A DNA stretch of 64,000 nt from an uncultured Gemmatimonadales bacterium (GTDB lineage Bacteria > Gemmatimonadota > Gemmatimonadetes > Gemmatimonadales > Gemmatimonadaceae): contig CAWBZV010000003.1 in assembly GCA_963793305.1 (NCBI GenBank), positions 416,001 through 480,000 on the forward strand, read 5' to 3'. Within the stretch, counting starts at the first letter, position 1, and each line of letters opens with the position of its first letter. Both the position numbers and the translations under genes were made by a program. Under the pieces are notes generated by a model that was not told where the DNA came from, ran no database searches, and saw only the letters and a list, made by a program, of their open reading frames with translations. Positions 31,035 to 54,455 of the stretch are shown piece by piece.

Positions 31035-31078
31035 TTGACGCTTAGTTCATAGTCAAATAATATTTAGGCGTGGCTAAA
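31035..31078 (+). promoter_or_regulatory. sigma70 promoter and DtxR/MntR-type operator over a leaderless start
   Basis: TTGACG-17 bp-TAATAT; palindrome TTTAG-N6-CTAAA at 31063-31078 covers the GTG at 31070. Confidence 0.75.
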
Positions 31079-32471
31079 ATCGACGAGCCGAAGGCGAGGA
31101 GTGGCCAACCGACCAGTCGAGCGGAGCATAGCGACGCCTCGACGCGCCGCGGAGCGGCGGGTGAGGTTAGGTGGCGGCATTCCCGCCCCACGCCGAGTCT
31201 GGCCGAGTCCTACCGGACGATCTCGGTCGAGGGCGGCTGGTGGCGCAAGCTGCTGGCCTTCGCCGGCCCGGGCTACCTGGTAGCCGTCGGCTACATGGAC
31301 CCCGGCAACTGGGCCACAGACCTCGCTGGCGGGTCCCGGTTCGGCTACGCCCTCCTGAGCGTGATCCTCGTCTCCAATCTCCTGGCGGTCCTCCTACAGG
31401 GCTTGGCGTCGAAGCTGGGCATCGTCACCGGCCGCGATCTGGCGCAGGCGTGTCGGGATGCCTACTCGCGCCCGACGTTCGATCGCGCTCTGGCTGGGTG
31501 CCGAAGTCGCCATTGCGGCGTGTGACTTGGCCGAGGTGATCGGCTCGGCGATCGCTCTGCAGTTGTTGTTTCACATTCCGCTCATCATCGGCGTCATCCT
31601 CACGTCGCTCGACGTGCTGATCGTGCTCTACTTGCAGCACAGCGGATTCCGGCGACTCGAAGCGGTCGTGGTCGTGCTCATCGCGACGATCGGCCTCTGC
31701 TTCTTGTTCGAGCTCGTCCTCGCCCGCCCTGATCTCGGCGCGGTCGCGCGCGGGTTCGTGCCGCAGGCGTCGGTCGTGACGAATCCGGCGCAGCTCTACA
31801 TCGCCATCTCGATCCTCGGCGCGACGGTCATGCCGCACAATCTGTATCTGCACTCGTCGATCGTGCAGACGCGAAGCTACGAGGAGACGCCGAGCGGGAA
31901 GCGCGAGGCCATTCGGTTCGCGTTCTTGGACTCGACGATCGCGCTCACGTTCGCGCTCTTTATCAACGCGGCGATCCTGATCGTGGCGGCCGCGATTTTT
32001 CATTCGACTGGACACACCGAAGTCGCCGAGATCGAGGATGCGTACAAGCTCCTGACGCCGCTCCTGGGCGTCGGAGGCGCCAGTCTCGTATTCGCGCTGG
32101 CGCTCCTCGCCTCCGGGCAGAACTCGACGTTGACGGGGACGCTCGCCGGGCAGATCGTGATGGAGGGGTTTCTCGACGTCAGGCTCCGGCCCTGGTTGCG
32201 GCGGCTCATCACGCGTGGGCTGGCGATCGTGCCGGCCGTCATCGTGACCGCGCTCTATGGCCAGCACGGGACGGCGAGCTTGCTCGTGTTGAGTCAGGTC
32301 GTGCTCAGTCTCCAGCTCTCGTTCGCCGTCGTCCCCCTGGTGCAGTTCACGTCGAGCCGGGCGATGATGGGGGAGTTCGTCAACCGGCGATGGCTGATCG
32401 TGCTCGCGTGGGTCGCTACGATTCTCATTGCGGGCCTGAACTTGTGGCTGCTGGTGCTTTCGTTCAGATGA
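31070..32471 (+). CDS. mntH: Nramp family Mn2+ transporter (frameshift ~31478)
   Basis: [30 protein letters not shown]. Confidence 0.93.
31105..31159 (+). repeat. third copy of the interspersed element, in frame within the MntH N-terminus
   Basis: ccaaccgaccagtcgagcg...tcgacgcgccgcggagcggcg encoding [18 protein letters not shown]. Confidence 0.85.
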
Positions 32472-33133
32472 CAGCGTATACGGAGTCCGTCGAGAACTGC
32501 CTCAAGGCGGTCTACGAGCTCGAGCGCTCGGGGCGCGAGAGCGTCTCGACGACCGATCTCGCCAACCGCCTCGGGATCGCGCCGCCGTCGGTGACGGGTA
32601 TGATGCGCCGGCTCGCCGACTCGGGTCTGATTAAGTATGAACCATACCATGGCGCTCGATTGACCAACGAAGGGCAGCGGGTTGCGCTGCGTACCTTGAG
32701 GCGCCATCGCATTATCGAGACGTACTTGGCGCGTGCGCTGGGCCTGTCCTGGGACCTCGTGCACGAGGAGGCCGAGCGGTTGGAGCACGCGGCGTCGGAT
32801 GCATTGATCGATCGGATGGCAATGGTGCTTGGGCACCCGACGGTGGATCCGCACGGCGCGCCGATTCCGACGGCCGAGGGCGCGATCGATGAGCGCATGC
32901 TGACGCCGCTCACCGAGCTCGATGTCGGCGATCGGGCGCGCATCGTCTCCGTGTACGACGAGGATCCCGATCGGCTGCGCTACCTGGGCCAACTCGGGCT
33001 CGTGCCCGGCGTCGTCGTGACGCTCGTGAGCCGTCAGCCCTACGGCGGGCCGCTCTCGCTGGGACTCGGCGATGCGGTCCGCGATATCGGGCCCGCGCTC
33101 GGCGCTTGTGTGTTCGCGGAGCGGCTCGGATGA
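32468..33133 (+). CDS. mntR: DtxR/MntR family metal-dependent repressor with FeoA domain
   Basis: [33 protein letters not shown]; follows mntH. Confidence 0.88.
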
Positions 33134-35636
33134 GCGAGACGCCACTCATGCAGCAGTATCGGGAGATCAAGGCGCGGCATCAGGACGCGATCCTGTTCTT
33201 TCGCATGGGCGATTTCTTCGAGATGTTCTACGAGGACGCCGAGGTTGGCTCGCGGGTCCTGGGTCTCACGCTGACGGCACGCAACAATGGCGGTGCGGCG
33301 GCGGTCCCTCTGGCCGGCGTCCCCGCCAAGGCGGTCAGCGAGTACGTCAAGCGACTCGTCCGCAAGGGCTTTCGTGTGGCGATCTGCGAGCAGGTCGAAG
33401 ATCCCAAGTACGCGAAGGGTCCTGTTCGGCGCGAGGTCATCGAGACGGTCACGCCCGGCGCCGCGCTCGCCGACGATCTCCTCGACGGGGCTCGCAATAA
33501 TTTTCTCTGCGCGCTGCATGGCACTGGTCTCGCGGCGGTCCGAATGTCTCGACGGGCGAATTCCGTCTCGCCACCGCCCACGTATCCGACGCCGCGGCTC
33601 TCGTCGCTCGCTACGCCCCACGTGAGATCCTGATTGCGCGCGGCGCCACGGTCGGCGTGCCGATCGATGGCGTGCTCGTGACAGAGCGCGAGCCGTGGGA
33701 GTTCGACACGGCGAGTGGCGCCGAAGCGTTAGCCCGGCGTTTTGGCGTTCAGTCGCTCGAGGGATTCGGCGTTCAGTCGTCCGACGCACCTGCCGTAGCG
33801 GCAGCGGGCGCATTGTTGGAGTACCTGCGCGAGCTTCAGCCGGGCGGGCTCCCGCACTTGGCGCGGCCGGTCATCGAACGTCCTGGTGGCTCGGTGCCCC
33901 TCGACGAAATGACGCGCCGGAATCTCGAGCTCGTCGAGTCGTTGCGTGGTGAGGCCGCGGGCACGTTGCTCGACGTCCTCGATCGGACATCGACGCCGAT
34001 GGGCGCGCGGCTTTTGCGCCAGTGGATTCTGGCGCCGCTTTCGGATCGCGTCGCGATCAACGCGCGGCTCGATCGCGTCGAGGCGTTGGCCAACGACTCA
34101 TTGGCCCGTGCGGCGTTGCGTGACGCGCTCGATGGGGTGCGCGACGTCGAGCGCCTCGCCGGCAAGGTCGCCGCTGCCCGGGCGACACCCCGCGAGCTTC
34201 GCTCGCTCGGCGACTCGCTGGCGCGCCTACCCGACGTTAGCGCGGCGGCGGCGCGCGTGGGTCTCGCCGAGCCCTGGGACACGTGCGACGATCTCGCCGC
34301 CGCGATCACTCGAGCGCTCGTCGAGCGGCCGCCGATCGCGATCGGTGATGAGCCGACGATTGAGATCGGTGTCGATGCCGGCGTCGACGAGCTGCGTGTG
34401 CTCCGTGACGGAGGGAAGGACGCGATCGCCGAGATTCAGGCGGCCGAGCGTACGCGGACGGGGATCGCGTCGCTCAAGGTCGGCTACAATCGGGTGTTCG
34501 GATACTTCATCGAGGTGACGAACGCCAACAAGGACGCGGTTCCGGCCGACTATCAGCGTCGCCAGACGCTGACGGGGGCCGAGCGGTATGTGACGCCGGC
34601 GCTCAAGGAGTACGAGGAGCGGGTGCTGACGGCGGCCGAGCGATTGGAGGCGCGCGAGCGGGAGTTATTCGAGGCGTTGCGCTCTGCTACCGGCACTGGG
34701 ATCGCTCGCCTTCAGCTTGTTGCTCGGCGAGTGGCCGAGCTCGACGTTGTGGCGACGTTCGCGGAGGTGGCGGAGCGCGAGCGGTTTGTTCGGCCGGTGG
34801 TGACGGACGACCTCGAGATCGACATCGTCGGCGGCCGGCATCCGGTCGTCGAGCGGATGATGCCGCGCGAGCAGTTCATCCCGAACGATGTTCGGCTCAG
34901 TACGGCCGAGCGGGTGATTATTCTCACGGGGCCGAACATGGCGGGCAAGTCGACGATCCTGCGCCAGGTCGGACTCATCGTATTGTTGGCCCAGGCCGGC
35001 AGCTTCGTACCCGCCGCGCGCGCGACGATCGGCATCGTCGACCGGCTCTTCACGCGCGTCGGCGCGAGCGACAATCTCGTGCGCGGGCAGTCGACGTTTA
35101 TGGTCGAGATGGCGGAGACGAGCGCCATTTTGCACACGGCCACCGCGCGCAGCCTCGTGTTGCTCGACGAGATCGGCCGCGGGACGTTGACGTACGACGG
35201 CGTCTCCATTGCGTGGTCCGTCACCGAGCATCTGCACTCTCGGGTAGGCTGCAAGACTATTTTCGCCACGCACTACCACGAGCTGACGCAACTCGCCGAC
35301 GAGCTCCCGGCTCTCCGCAACTACAACGTGGCCGTCCGCGAAGTCGGCGATCGCATTTTGTTCTTGCACCGGATGCAACCGGGCGGCGCCGATCGCTCCT
35401 ACGGAATCGAAGTCGGCCGCCTCGCCGGCCTCCCGGACGCCGTCATCACTCGCGCTCGCGAAGTGTTGCGGCGCCTCGAAAGCGAACAGCTCGTCGCGTC
35501 ACGCCCTGTCGAGCAGCTCGCACTTTTTGCTCCCGAGCCTCACGCCGCCGTCAAACGCTTAGCAGCGCTCAATCCCGATGATATGACGCCGTTGCAAGCA
35601 CTGACTTTGTTATCTGAGCTCAAAGGGCTCGTTTAA
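33130..35636 (+). CDS. mutS: DNA mismatch repair protein MutS (frameshift ~33540-33600)
   Basis: TPLMQQY, FRMGDFFE, GPNMAGKST, STFMVEM, DEIGRGT, FATHYHEL. Confidence 0.95.
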
Positions 35637-35772
35637 AATCTCACCGCCGAGATTTACTCGCTAGCGCGCAACGCGCGGCGCTTTTTATATTGCCGGTCCG
35701 CTGAACCAGCGTGTGGCCGTTTTCGAATCACCGTGTCGCAGCACCCAGTTGGCACCAAACACGCCGCGTGTG

Positions 35773-35858
35773 GCCCGCGTGGTGGAACTGGTAGACACGG
35801 TCGATTCGCAATCGACTGACCCGCAAGGGTCGTGTGGGTTCAAATCCCGCCGCGGGCA
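35773..35858 (+). tRNA. type II tRNA with Leu-type body and CGC (Ala) anticodon
   Basis: Acceptor GCCCGCG/CGCGGGC with A73; D-arm GTGGAACTGGTAGACAC; anticodon arm GTCGA-TTCGCAA-TCGAC; variable arm GACCC-GCAA-GGGTC; T-arm GTGGG-TTCAAAT-CCCGC; no encoded CCA. Confidence 0.9.
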
Positions 35859-35888
35859 CACGCTGGTTGACACGTACGCTTTTGCACG

Positions 35889-35917
35889 TTGACGGTCGGA
35901 CGCACTATTTCTAGATT
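35889..35917 (+). promoter_or_regulatory. sigma70 promoter for the downstream small RNA
   Basis: TTGACG-17 bp-TAGATT. Confidence 0.7.
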
Positions 35918-35921
35918 TACT

Positions 35922-35997
35922 ACGACCCTTGCGGGCGAAGTGTCCGCCAGTTCCAGACACAGAAGTGACCCCGGGTGATTGCGACACCCGGGGTTTT
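35922..35997 (+). ncRNA. putative anti-tRNA small RNA (three hairpins)
   Basis: Bounded by a promoter and a terminator; three segments complementary to the upstream tRNA. Confidence 0.7.
35969..35997 (+). terminator. intrinsic terminator (possibly bidirectional)
   Basis: CCCCGGGTG-ATTGCGA-CACCCGGGG-TTTT. Confidence 0.8.
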
Positions 35998-36005
35998 CTG
36001 TTGCG

Positions 36006-36710
36006 CTACATGGTCGTCGCCGGCTGATCCGGCATCAGGAATCGAAATTCCTGCCGCACCCACTGCCGCACGAGCCTCCCGCCGAGCTCCGCGGGCACGA
36101 AGCGCATGTGAGGGAGCGCCGAGCGGAGTGATTGCTCGAAGGCCGGGTGCGAGGAGTGGATCACGCGGAGACTGGTGCTGTCCGCGCCGCCCGTCGTGTC
36201 GACGACGAATTCGACGGTCAGCGACCCCTCGATGTGATTCTCCATGAGATACGACGGATACTCCGGCGCCGCACTCGTGGGATCCCGTTGCACCTCGCGG
36301 TCGACCTCGGCGTCGACATAGACCTTGCCACTCGGCAGCGCGTCGATGTCGGGAAGGTCGACCGTAGGCGCCGCGTCGCCCTTGCGCCCAAGGCCGATGC
36401 CTTGGCGGTTGTCGCCGGCGACGTTGAGCCCGGTGCCTTTGGTGGCCTTTGACCGGTCCCCAGACCCATTGGCATTGCTCGGCGCCCATTTGACGCCAGC
36501 GGTATCGAGCGACTTCCCTGTGGGAATCGTCGGAGCCAGATAGGTGACGATGCGCTCCTCGTCACTCTTCTTATCCGCCACTTTCGGCCAATACGCGGCA
36601 CCGGACGCGATGAAAAAGACGACAGCGGAAGCCGCTAATCCCACCGTCACCGACGGTACCGAACACAGACTCGCACTCTGTGGTGCCACGAGGTGGCGCA
36701 GCATACCCAC
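36006..36710 (-). CDS. TonB family energy transducer
   Basis: N-terminal TM; PEYP...IEG...VEFVVDTTG...FVPA. Confidence 0.8.
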   Translation of the reverse strand: MGMLRHLVAPQSASLCSVPSVTVGLAASAVVFFIASGAAYWPKVADKKSDEERIVTYLAPTIPTGKSLDTAGVKWAPSNANGSGDRSKATKGTGLNVAGDNRQGIGLGRKGDAAPTVDLPDIDALPSGKVYVDAEVDREVQRDPTSAAPEYPSYLMENHIEGSLTVEFVVDTTGGADSTSLRVIHSSHPAFEQSLRSALPHMRFVPAELGGRLVRQWVRQEFRFLMPDQPATTM

Positions 36711-37601: not shown

Positions 37602-38935
37602 TTGTTGATCAACTCCTGAAGGACCTGTACGGCACGCGGATCGTGGGACTGCCCGAGCCAGAACACCGCCTTCTTGCGCATCTCGGGATCCTTGTCGGTC
37701 TTGGCGATCGAGATCAGCTCATCGACCGCCGAGCGCTCGTGGCGTTGCGAGTACGCAAAGATCAGGGCCTCCTTGAGCTCGCGATCCTGCATCCGGCCAT
37801 AGAGGCCGGTGAGCTGGTCGAGTGACGAGCTGCCCTGGCCCAGCCAGAAGATCGCCTTCTTCCGCACCTCGACGTCCTGCGTCGTATCCGTGGCGACGCC
37901 CGCCAGCCAGTCGGCCTCGTCCCCGCTGTGACGTTGGGCGACCGAGAAGATGATCTTGTCCTTGAGATCCATGCTCTTCTCTTTGCGGAACATATTCTTG
38001 AGAAACGTCTCGTCGTCGGGATTTGAGCTCTGGCCGAGCCAGAACACGGCCTTCTCCCGCAGGTCTTCGTTCTGGGACTCGTCGCCCGCGAACTGGCGCA
38101 AGATCGGCGACCCGTGATCGTGCTGCTGCGTGAGCGCGAACAGGGCCTTCTCGCGAATCTCCTCGTCGTCCGAGTGCAGCAGCAGGCTGTCGAGCATCCC
38201 GACGGCACGGGGATCGTGGACCTGCGACAGCCAGAAGACGGCTTGCTCGCGGACCTCCTGGTCCGGGTCGGTGCGCGCGGTGGCGAGCAGGATATCGGCG
38301 CCGTCGGACTGGGCTTTTTGCGATACCAGAAAGACCGCCTTGCGACGCAGCACGACCGAGCAGGCATCCCGGCGCGCGAGCACCTGCTTCAAGATCGGCA
38401 TCGCCTTGTCGGGCTCGACCTGGAGCAAGGCGTCGAGCGCGGCGATCTGGATATTGTTGTCGTCGTCCTCGGTCGGGCACTTGGTCGACTCGGTCGTGGG
38501 CTCCTTCGAGTCCGCCTTGTACATCAGGCGCCGCTTACACGATTCATCCCCCTTCTGCACCAGCTGACGGCAGACCTGCGCGGTCAGCGCTCCGGCATCC
38601 TTGGAGAGCGACGTCGTGGACGCCGTGAGGATGCCATAGGCCTGACGCAGGTCATCGATGCTGCCCATGCGCGACCGCGAAAACGCTTCGTAGTAGGCCG
38701 CCGTCGAGGCGTATGTCGATGTCGGATACCGCGATGTGATCTCATGGAACAACGCGGCCGCGCGGGCATAGCGTTGCTCGGCCATCGCGGCGCGGGCCGC
38801 GGTGTACAGTGAGTCGGCCGGGTCGTCCGGATAGGCGCCCACCGCAATCACATTCGACTCGGCCAGCTGCAGCTGCGCGCGAGCGGGCTGCGCGGCGAGC
38901 AGGGCGAGAGAGACGGCAAGAAAGAGTTTCATCAT
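37598..38935 (-). CDS. secreted TPR + HEAT repeat protein
   Basis: Signal peptide; repeated R(E/K)KA(V/I)FWLGQ. Confidence 0.82.
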   Translation of the reverse strand: MMKLFLAVSLALLAAQPARAQLQLAESNVIAVGAYPDDPADSLYTAARAAMAEQRYARAAALFHEITSRYPTSTYASTAAYYEAFSRSRMGSIDDLRQAYGILTASTTSLSKDAGALTAQVCRQLVQKGDESCKRRLMYKADSKEPTTESTKCPTEDDDNNIQIAALDALLQVEPDKAMPILKQVLARRDACSVVLRRKAVFLVSQKAQSDGADILLATARTDPDQEVREQAVFWLSQVHDPRAVGMLDSLLLHSDDEEIREKALFALTQQHDHGSPILRQFAGDESQNEDLREKAVFWLGQSSNPDDETFLKNMFRKEKSMDLKDKIIFSVAQRHSGDEADWLAGVATDTTQDVEVRKKAIFWLGQGSSSLDQLTGLYGRMQDRELKEALIFAYSQRHERSAVDELISIAKTDKDPEMRKKAVFWLGQSHDPRAVQVLQELINK

Positions 38936-39600
38936 AGACCCACCTGGTTCTGATTCGTCGGAATCGCTGCCTTGATCCGCGGCAGCACTTGAGCGTCATC
39001 GAGCGTGTGGGCGATCGCCGCCCGATCGCTCGTCGCGGCATCCGGCGAAAGCGCGGCGATCTGCACCAGCACGAGCTCGAGGTCTTCGAGCAACTGTCGC
39101 CGATGCGGATCGGCGCCCGCGGGCGAGTCCAGCAACAGTCGCGTGTTCGACAACAGGTCGCGGGCCCACAACGCAAGGTGCGCGTCCGCTTTCGCATCGG
39201 CCTTCGCGCCCGCTGCATTGCCCGTCGCCTGGCGGTTGTTGGCGTCGAACGCCGTGAGCAGCGCCTGCACTTCCAGAAGCTGCTGCGTCGTCGCGATCGC
39301 GTAAGCCTCGGGCACAGCCGTTGGAGCTGCCGCGGGATTCGCCGCGATCGGAGTACCGGTCGGGCGCGAGATGCTCACGCGCCCGACCCCAATGCCAACC
39401 GCGAGCACGATGACGGCCGCGGCCGCGAGCGGAGCGAAGCGACGCGAGAGTTGTAGTATGCGCGGCCGACCCCGCCGCTGCCCCGCGACGATCGCCGCCC
39501 ACATGGCCTCACGCGGCACGATCATCGGCGGCTGATTGTAATCCCGCGCCAGGTCACGCAGCGCGTCGTTCCACTTTTCTTCGTTCGCGTCGTCGTTCAT
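38932..39600 (-). CDS. putative membrane anti-sigma factor
   Basis: Single TM; coupled to the upstream ECF sigma by ATGA. Confidence 0.65.
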   Translation of the reverse strand: MNDDANEEKWNDALRDLARDYNQPPMIVPREAMWAAIVAGQRRGRPRILQLSRRFAPLAAAAVIVLAVGIGVGRVSISRPTGTPIAANPAAAPTAVPEAYAIATTQQLLEVQALLTAFDANNRQATGNAAGAKADAKADAHLALWARDLLSNTRLLLDSPAGADPHRRQLLEDLELVLVQIAALSPDAATSDRAAIAHTLDDAQVLPRIKAAIPTNQNQVGL

Positions 39601-40140
39601 GCGATCCACTCCCCGGCAAAATCCGCCAACGCAGTGCGCAACTTGGCCCGCGCCCGCGACAATTGTGCTTTCGAAGTCCCCGACTCTATGCCCAGCACGA
39701 CCCCGATCTCCTCGTGCGTATACCCTTCGAACGTCGTGCATCACGAACACCGTCCGATACCCGTCCGGCAGCGCGTCAATCGCCCGCGCCAGCCGCTCCT
39801 TGAGATCCGGCTCACTCCCAACCCGTACCGCACCGAGCGTCGCCTCGTCGACCGCGGTCGTCTCCCGCTCACGGAGCCGCCTGACCGAGCGCAGCCCATT
39901 GAGGGCCACCGACACGCCAATCGAATGCAGCCACGTCGAGAACGACGACCGTCGCTTGAACGTGCCGAGCGATGCGAACGCCCGGATGAACGTGTCCTGC
40001 GTGAAATCCCGAGCGAGGTCGGCGTCACCGGCGAACCGATAGGCGAGCCGGTAGACTCGGTCGACGTGCGCGTCATACAGCGCGCGCTGCGCGGCCGGAT
40101 CTCCCGCCAACACGCGATCGATCAACGCGTCGTCGCTCAA
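39597..40140 (-). CDS. ECF RNA polymerase sigma factor (frameshift ~39730)
   Basis: DFTQDTFIRAF, FSTWLH, LPDGYR, then GYTHEEIG...SKAQLSRAR in the second frame. Confidence 0.88.
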
Positions 40141-40304
40141 GCGTCCTCTCGTGCCATGGCGACACTCTGACACGCCGATATCACAAAGGGTTGCGTGTTA
40201 CGGTCGCGCTCGCATCTTAGGCGCATGTTTTCAGGCCGTCGCGGACTCATTCTAGCGGCGCTCGCTGTCGTACCGGGCCTTCAACTTGCGCCGCAGGTGA
40301 GCCT

Positions 40305-53423: not shown

Positions 53424-54455
53424 GTGCACAGAATCCAGTCAGTGCTGAACTCAGCGTACACGTTCGCCCATTTCGTGATCGGCAAGTCGAACGACCTGGC
53501 CGCAGCCAGCGCTACGGCTGTGGCCGCACGCCCGGGCCGGACGTACAACCCGCTGTTTATCTATGGCGAGACCGGCCTCGGCAAGACGCACCTCATGCAG
53601 GCGGTCGCGCACGAGGTACTGGGCCGGCATCCGGAGACGCGGCTCGTGTACGTCTCGGCTGAGCAGTTCACGAACGACCTGGTGAGCTCGATGCAGCAGG
53701 CGGATTTGTCACCATTCCGCGCGCGATATCACACTGCTGATCTATTGCTGATCGACGACGTGCACATTCTCGCGGGTCGTCGCGCAGCCCAAGATGCATT
53801 TGCTGAGACGTTCGCCGTTCTGCACAACGGCGGTCGACAGATCATGATGACGAGCGACCGCGCGCCGCAGTCGTCGGGCCTCGACAGCGAGCTCGTAGGC
53901 CGTTTTCGAGGGGGAAAAATCGCCGACGTCTCTCGCCCGGAACGTTCGAGCATCGTCACGCGATCCTGCGCGAGAAAATCAAATTCGACACGCGTGGCCC
54001 GGCGGTTCCCGACGATGTGATCGCGTTCATCGCCGATCAAGTCACGCAGAACGTGCGCGCGATGGAGGGCGCGCTGACGCGTCTCATTGCCTACGCCGCC
54101 CTCAAATCGCGTCCCGTGAGTCTCGATCTCGCGCGTGAAGCCCTGCCCTTGAAGGCAGCCGCCACGCCGAGCGCCGACGCGGAATTGGTGGCTCGCCGGG
54201 TCGCGGCTGAGTGGGGTGTTACACCCGAGGCGCTGGCCTCGAAGCGCCGGACGAAAGAGATCGTCGAGCCCCGCCAGGTCGCCATGCACCTCTGTCGTGA
54301 GATTCTCGGCATGACGCTATCCGACATTCGGGGCCGTATTCGGCGGACGCGACCACTCGACCGTGATTCACGGGCTCGAGAGGGTGCACGCGGAAATGGG
54401 GTTCAACCCGGCATTTTCTGCCCGTGTTCGGCGTCTCGAAGAGGGGCTCCGGTAG
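53424..54455 (+). CDS. DnaA paralog lacking domains I-II (frameshifts ~53945 and ~54327)
   Basis: YTFAHFVIG, YNPLFIYGETGLGKTHL, LLIDD, NVRAMEGAL, PRQVAM, FGGRDHSTVIH. Confidence 0.85.

Follow-up and report, generated by a model that had tools for sequence, protein, structure and literature searches.

In hok/Sok and aapA1/IsoA1, as described in the available part of PMC5416894, the full-length toxin RNA is kept inert by its fold and is activated by end processing and refolding. Their antisense RNAs have promoters of their own, act on the cognate partner among paralogs and bind the active form; IsoA1 and Sok bind the processed toxin mRNA only. A type VIII toxin-antitoxin system is defined as one with an RNA toxin and an RNA antitoxin (PMC11951105). 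Among tRNAs, natural missense allo-tRNAs have been found to arrest and kill E. coli. They come from soil bacteria, combine a long variable arm and one charging identity with many unrelated anticodons, and often lie near protein toxin-antitoxin loci (PMC5389517). The Streptomyces tRNA-ProX is another natural bacterial mismatch between body and anticodon, with a growth cost in E. coli (PMC11415595). Judging from its sequence, the cassette described here, in a window of 64,000 nucleotides (the whole stretch analysed), is a locked missense tRNA with a leucine body and a dedicated, co-evolving antisense RNA. It is real, conserved, and larger than the first-pass annotation had noted.

The tRNA, the putative toxin, is encoded at 35773..35858, on the plus strand like all features of the window given below. 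ARAGORN labels it tRNA-Ala(CGC) and Rfam matches it with the generic tRNA model only; the anticodon CGC at 35807..35809, seen both in the tRNA call and in the parsed sequence, reads the alanine codon GCG. The body is that of a tRNA-Leu when the parsed sequence is held against the leucine identity rules of PMC9976931, with a 7/5 cloverleaf, a long variable arm, discriminator A73 at 35858, A15:U48, G18G19, A20a, U8:A14, U54:A58 and C2:G71. Instead of the G3:U70 pair of a canonical tRNA-Ala there is C3:G70, and the variable region is 17 nt; the 7/5 branch and A73 also set it apart from the allo-tRNAs. Leucine identity in E. coli is set by these body elements and not by the anticodon, and all the E. 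coli determinants given in the available text of PMC9976931 are found in this tRNA.

The window's genome (G000) has 55 tRNA genes, being 62 ARAGORN calls minus 7 implausible ones, among them five Leu tRNAs and two Ala(CGC) tRNAs of the ordinary kind and three hybrids of Leu body and CGC anticodon, as well as one strong LeuRS-domain match. In this genome no codon is used more often than GCG (62.5 per 1000 in long ORFs), and the target codons GCG, GCC and CGC rank 1, 3 and 6. Since the leucine identity elements are joined to a CGC anticodon while GCG still means alanine, the mature tRNA should be charged with leucine and would place it at alanine codons. A gene class is thus concealed beneath ordinary labels such as tRNA-Ala. 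The two other hybrids are paralogous cassettes with anticodon CGC and an antisense RNA of their own, at G000:C3:636248-636334 (plus strand) and 709201-709287 (minus strand). The same genome also contains two atypical tRNAs with similar flanks, called Val (CAC) and Arg (GCG), at G000:C11:51975-52049 and 53866-53938, and an Ile-like tRNA with anticodon TAT at G000:C5:432842-432915. ARAGORN found no tmRNA gene in the assembly, which is 92% complete.

The first-pass annotation had proposed that leader and trailer hold the tRNA precursor in an alternative fold, and every pairing it named is present. The leader, the cis lock, spans 35697..35772 and is supported by folding, shuffles, alignment and covariation. 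Its segment 35704..35715 is the exact reverse complement of 35857-35868, a helix of 12 bp that includes C72 and A73 and whose trailer strand proper is 35859..35868; two of the consensus pairs are changed on both sides in nine relatives. The block 35724..35737 pairs with 35794-35808 in 14 bp with one bulged C, thereby opening the D stem on its 3' strand and the anticodon stem on its 5' strand, along with two of the anticodon's three bases, and a further block (35745..35757) is directed against the D arm, its parts 35745-35750 and 35753-35757 pairing with 35780-35791; both blocks are backed by covariation. An alternative partner of the trailer, 35766..35772, is the exact complement of 35857-35863 and would lengthen the acceptor stem over A73, in line with a GT at -2/-1 found in the family. 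It is also true that no CCA is encoded, which as a signal is uninformative, CCA being encoded in only 2 of the 55 tRNA genes.

Folding of 35697-35870 beside truncated forms disfavours the cloverleaf in the full precursor and frees it when the 5' end is shortened. The computed penalty for the cloverleaf is 16.4 kcal/mol in the full precursor as compared to 1.3 kcal/mol in the bare tRNA. Removal of the trailer alone still leaves 10.3 kcal/mol, and it is only with a 5' end at 35740 or further that the penalty falls to 1.7 kcal/mol, about that of the bare tRNA. The stretch 35697-35875 folds at -88.1 kcal/mol (z-score -4.19), a stability reached by none of 200 shuffles, and the lock score of the window, 14.1 kcal/mol, stands against 1.4 +/- 1.9 with shuffled leaders, 0 of 60 reaching it. 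In nine relatives the two helices between leader and D arm are 98.3% paired, both bases have changed in 3 of the 13 pairs, and the covariation score of the helices was matched by 1 of 500 shuffles; the structure was derived from the same sequences, and the slide control thus leans in its favour. RNAalifold, given the nine relatives, returned a cloverleaf within the leader:trailer helix and not the locked fold, and the lock helices were therefore counted separately. Taken as modelled, these results support a lock in the precursor of this cassette. The earlier view that the full precursor is inactive is thus partly upheld by folding and covariation for this copy and does not extend evenly to the family, where the lock varies and a leader swap has no significant effect, as described below. 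The mismatch between leucine body and alanine anticodon and the antisense RNA downstream, neither of which the first-pass annotation had mentioned, suggest what the lock is for.

It is likely that the precursor starts near 35697-35700, judging from a putative -10 hexamer TATATT at 35686..35691, which has no clear -35 and is similar and in the same place in most of the aligned relatives. A terminator-like hairpin with a T run behind mutS (35664..35689, from the terminator scan; mutS by Pfam and PDB matches) overlaps this promoter. Contigs from four of 24 metatranscriptome runs (X1, X2, X3 and X5) cover 36005-36400, in a tonB-like gene, and none of the cassette; matches of this kind are assembled contigs and thus uninformative on its expression.

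Behind the tRNA there is a second transcription unit. A sigma-70-type promoter (TTGACG, 17 nt, TAGATT) was found by promoter scan at 35889..35917, and it is followed by a small antisense RNA of about 78 nt, the putative antitoxin, at 35922..35999, recognised by complementarity and alignment and with ends that are inferred. Its first block, 35922..35935, is a perfect 14-nt complement of the variable arm (35820-35833), and its second, 35940..35955, faces the D arm (35783-35798) with 14 Watson-Crick pairs, one G:U and one mismatch. An intrinsic terminator at 35967..35999 would end the antisense RNA and probably also a read-through precursor: the terminator scan of the window found no U-tailed terminator between the tRNA and the small RNA, so that transcription of the precursor may continue into the antisense, which would then also lie in cis. 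The cassette contains no plus-strand ORF of at least 60 aa (shorter ones are not listed), and the conserved element is the tRNA.

The antisense is computed to bind the mature tRNA at -15.6 kcal/mol and the locked precursor at only -3.1 kcal/mol, a preference for the unlocked form which, like the locked fold itself, is a computed result and parallels what the available text of PMC5416894 describes for IsoA1 and Sok. In the three cassettes of the genome the small RNAs bind their own tRNAs at -19.7, -20.5 and -11.9 kcal/mol, and each binds its own best among the 55 tRNAs, with one near tie: the tRNA of the third cassette binds the window's small RNA about equally (-12.3 kcal/mol). The window's antisense also binds the ordinary Leu(CAG) tRNA at -11.1 kcal/mol. 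As in type I toxin-antitoxin systems, the antisense thus appears to be specific for its cognate and to have a promoter of its own, and as in type VIII systems both partners would be RNA.

The cassette is one of a family. DNA and pattern searches gave 237 loci; L192, from the unpublished genome G012, was excluded from all counts, and that genome enters only the raw search tallies. Of the 217 matches to the D-arm motif that went through the parser, 132 had an intact structure and sufficient flank; dropping identical tRNAs left 130, of which 36 carry a Leu anticodon and 94 another. Several pattern matches were discarded as not being intact cloverleaves, and some of these look intron-split. The phylum group, which consists of the loci of our G genomes and the Gemmatimonadota records and is itself an inferred grouping, has 53 non-Leu tRNAs with a Leu body and 33 true Leu tRNAs as controls. 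A73 was a selection filter, all family members carrying it; of the other body traits U48 is present in 52 of 53 and C2:G71 in 50 of 53, and G3:U70 in none. A perfect downstream complement of at least 10 nt accompanies 43 of the 53 family members and none of the 33 Leu tRNAs, a promoter pattern behind the tRNA 36 of 53 against 0 of 33, and a terminator behind the antisense 33 of 53 against 0 of 33. The members are kin, and such counts overstate the number of independent events.

The antisense spans the anticodon loop in 41 of the 53, the window copy with its variable- and D-arm targets being an exception, and the triplet opposite the anticodon tracks it across 11 codons (for Ala, Arg, Glu, Asp, Val, Pro, Ser and Gly). 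Of the downstream regions of all members, the one bound best by an anticodon arm is its own in 45 of 53 cases, as compared to 1 of 33 controls. In a metagenome scan that was blind to the anticodon, with 121 matches of which 17 were not intact, 7 short and 7 duplicates, leaving 90, an antisense accompanied 4 of 4 non-Leu and 0 of 86 Leu tRNAs. Nine of ten Planctomycete copies have an antisense, mostly against the variable arm, and one IMG/VR contig (L221) holds a complete cassette. The antisense is absent in 4 of the 53 phylum members and in 28 of 31 non-planctomycete members from other phyla or viruses, so that such tRNAs can exist without antisense control. At least 18 of 401 phylum genomes carry the strict pattern, all in the window's order; this is a floor, as the strict pattern excludes Val anticodons and D-loop variants. 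The search patterns favour some anticodons, and the anticodon frequencies are biased to that extent.

The searches also brought up other arrangements. L285 has two full cassettes in tandem, with anticodons CGC and GAC. Ten loci (L059, L061, L064, L089, L090, L116, L127, L133, L146 and L174), mostly from Alpha- and Gammaproteobacteria, combine a Leu-type D arm and a non-Leu anticodon with a very long variable arm of 26-31 nt, mostly encode CCA and have no downstream antisense; by sequence they are possibly another family. Six loci from Solirubrobacterales (L139, L141, L142, L157, L158 and L113) are tRNA-like genes that have a Leu-type D arm, TTC (Glu) as the anticodon and a much expanded variable region, with no downstream antisense of this kind, and three from Saccharibacteria (L056, L097 and L102) have a Leu-type body, the Gly anticodon ACC and an encoded CCA, with the antisense absent. 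L016 and L035 are Leu-body tRNAs with the Pro anticodon TGG, without leader lock and antisense; the neighbourhood of L016 includes an IS1595-type transposase gene, that of L035 a Fic gene.

The lock is uneven across the family. Counting only leader and trailer, a lock of at least 5 kcal/mol is reached by 17 of 53 members as compared to 1 of 33 Leu tRNAs, and 23 of 53 stay below 2 kcal/mol; with read-through into the antisense 43 of 53 members reach 5 kcal/mol, against 4 of 33. The window's copy has one of the tightest locks. Leaders swapped among members did not give a significantly lower lock than their own leaders (p 0.26), and the longest run of leader:trailer pairing separates family from controls only weakly (medians 5 and 4). 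GT at -2/-1, facing A73-C74, is found in 31 of 53 family members and 0 of 33 Leu tRNAs. Such a GT may hinder RNase P and RNase Z. A -10-like hexamer lies 5-25 nt upstream in 20 of 33 ordinary Leu tRNAs and in 0 of 53 family members, of which 16 have one 70-105 nt upstream, the histogram peaking at 70-89 nt. Family precursors therefore likely have a long leader.

Comparison of the loci shows how freely the anticodon is exchanged. At the site between mutS and tonB it is CGC in G000 and G001 (Ala), CTC in G004 (Glu) and CAC in G005 (Val), and each of these four species has the matching antisense, which suggests that no particular codon is needed. At the site between Ro60 and rtcB, G001 and G004 have the anticodon GGC, and G005 has GGA. 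The window's genome has there, at G000:C3 ~293510 beside Ro60 and rtcB (L257, L258), the scar of a fourth cassette: about 235 bp with tRNA and antisense are missing together, promoter and terminator are kept, and the flanks are 92-94% identical to G004. Ro60 adjoins only L022, L026 and L256, the first two of which lie between Ro60 and rtcB. At L002 and L023 a second unit of promoter, antisense and terminator follows 130-270 nt behind the tRNA; that of L002 matches the D arm over 20 nt, and that of L023 fits a variant arm with anticodon AGG, which is absent among the tRNAs of G000. These extra units are possibly orphan antitoxins, to judge from what they match.

Each site has its own set of neighbours, for the most part unrelated genes of housekeeping function; mobile or defence genes are few among them. 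Among 88 flanking ORFs (of 94 picked, in flanks of about 1.5 kb) there was no synthetase, no cas family and no conserved neighbour gene, and the plasmid and phage records contained no match to the cassette. With such neighbours and no such match, nothing obvious is being addicted. The window has apparent frameshifts, probably assembly errors, in 31070-32471, 33106-35636 and 38932-40173; they split mutS and a gene that we take to be metal-transporter-like, and fuse a presumably sigma-factor-like gene with its neighbour.

The cassette is probably an RNA-only toxin-antitoxin module with a logic like that of hok/sok, in which a mistranslating tRNA is the toxin. This reading builds on the anatomy of the cassette, its leucine elements, the family, the covariation between antisense and anticodon arm, and the joint loss of both partners at one site, all of which are found in the sequences. 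The long precursor would be a slow-release reservoir in which leader and trailer hide the D arm, the anticodon arm and A73, helped, upon read-through, by the downstream antisense in cis, which would hide the same parts. A 5' cut in the leader would let the cloverleaf form, and the host LeuRS would charge it with leucine; by reading GCG it would then cause Ala-to-Leu substitution throughout the proteome. The short RNA from the internal promoter would bind the unlocked tRNA and inactivate it. If transcription stopped or the cassette was lost, the short RNA would disappear first and the tRNA would act, with addiction, growth arrest or abortive infection as the outcome. Transcription, the order of processing, leucylation, toxicity, the instability of the antisense and the trigger are the steps that we infer. 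That any non-Leu anticodon serves is more easily understood of a poison than of a function that the cell requires. It is possible, and we hold it tentatively, that the cassettes form a widespread, mobile-acting class in Gemmatimonadota and Planctomycetota: a leucine-charged poison with swappable anticodon, kept in a stable locked reservoir, countered by anticodon-specific immunity antisenses that can accumulate as orphans, and released abortively upon host shut-off. In this widest form, a phage or another agent that halts host transcription would free code-wide mistranslation as an abortive defence.

The chromosomal sites amid housekeeping genes, kept across a genus, and the position of two cassettes between the RNA-stress genes Ro60 and rtcB would also suit a regulated, sub-lethal device, in which stress unlocks the tRNA so that the proteome is diversified or slowed, for persistence or bet-hedging, with the small RNA as a dimmer in place of an antidote; encoded mistranslation has been proposed as useful (PMC11415595). 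We regard such a device as unlikely, as its scattered occurrence, in 18 of 401 genomes with a single strict pattern, fits a selfish or immunity logic better, and the free exchange of the target codon at one site, the cognate-specific antisense and the extra antisense units all speak against it. It is more doubtful still that the RNA works outside translation, as a decoy for an anticodon nuclease or as a sponge that takes up LeuRS, EF-Tu or Ro60, its level set by the antisense. The 5' and 3' ends of Y RNAs pair, which the ends of the precursor resemble, and two loci lie beside Ro60; some allo-tRNA-like RNAs, moreover, are charged yet unused in translation (PMC5389517). Against this, the family keeps its decoding traits (U33 in 52 of 53, a purine at 37 in 53 of 53, normal T loops), the anticodons avoid leucine though the body keeps the leucine determinants, the antisense mostly targets the anticodon loop, and in six loci Rfam matched no Y RNA even with an E limit of 1.

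A reassignment of GCG to leucine in this lineage could draw on the three copies of a well-formed Leu-body tRNA with CGC. It is hardly credible, as the genome keeps two ordinary Ala(CGC) tRNAs and the relatives have other anticodons at the same site. This candidate was also tried on mutS and rejected: its 43 GCG codons face other alanine codons 13, 16 and 10 times, and leucine codons 1, 0 and 1 times, in three relatives. The apparent frameshifts show that the assembly has errors, and an anticodon produced by such an error, or an inverted duplication left as a neutral relic by recombination at a tRNA gene, is to be considered. Both are very improbable: the anticodon is the same in three paralogs and in independent genomes, and the compensatory changes in stems, leader and antisense refute an artefact unless every assembly shares the error. 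The antisense, moreover, has a promoter and terminator of its own, and in Planctomycetes it targets the variable arm instead.

The toxin-antitoxin reading places the cassette between several known systems. In hok/Sok and aapA1/IsoA1 the toxin is a peptide, while here the RNA itself would be the toxin and no ORF would be needed; their antisense lies on the opposite strand, here its gene follows in tandem, on the strand of the tRNA; and the folding suggests a 5' cut, as for tisB, in place of their 3' trimming. SdsR/RyeA is a type VIII toxin-antitoxin system. With it and CreTA the cassette would share that toxin and antitoxin are both RNA and that translation is the target. CreT sequesters a host tRNA and CreA represses via the CRISPR Cascade, whereas here a tRNA toxin would corrupt decoding and the antitoxin would pair with it directly; the flanking ORFs include no cas family, and the Rfam scans found no CRISPR family. 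Nor does the cassette look like the bacterial Y RNAs YrlA/YrlB, with no Rfam match and with linkage to Ro60 at three loci only. The allo-tRNAs have 8/4 or 9/3 branches and Ser or Ala identity, as compared to the canonical 7/5 Leu body here, and the words antisense, leader, precursor and complementary do not occur in the main text of PMC5389517. ProX has a dedicated synthetase and A34, and antisense control is not described in the available text of PMC11415595; here there is no synthetase near the cassettes. An antisense-controlled mistranslating tRNA was not found, by literal term matching, in the literature searched, which held few subscription papers.

If the reading is true, the genetic code is used as a weapon in nature, with a tRNA as the toxin and an antisense RNA that switches it off. 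It would be a candidate answer to the question why soil bacteria keep tRNAs with mismatched body and anticodon, open since the allo-tRNA work (PMC5389517), and would offer a programmable switch, compact and protein-free, with which missense or suppressor tRNAs could be controlled. Should toxicity and rescue be borne out, the cassette would belong to type VIII, with a class of toxin and a form of control, antisense against a tRNA, that the literature searched did not show.
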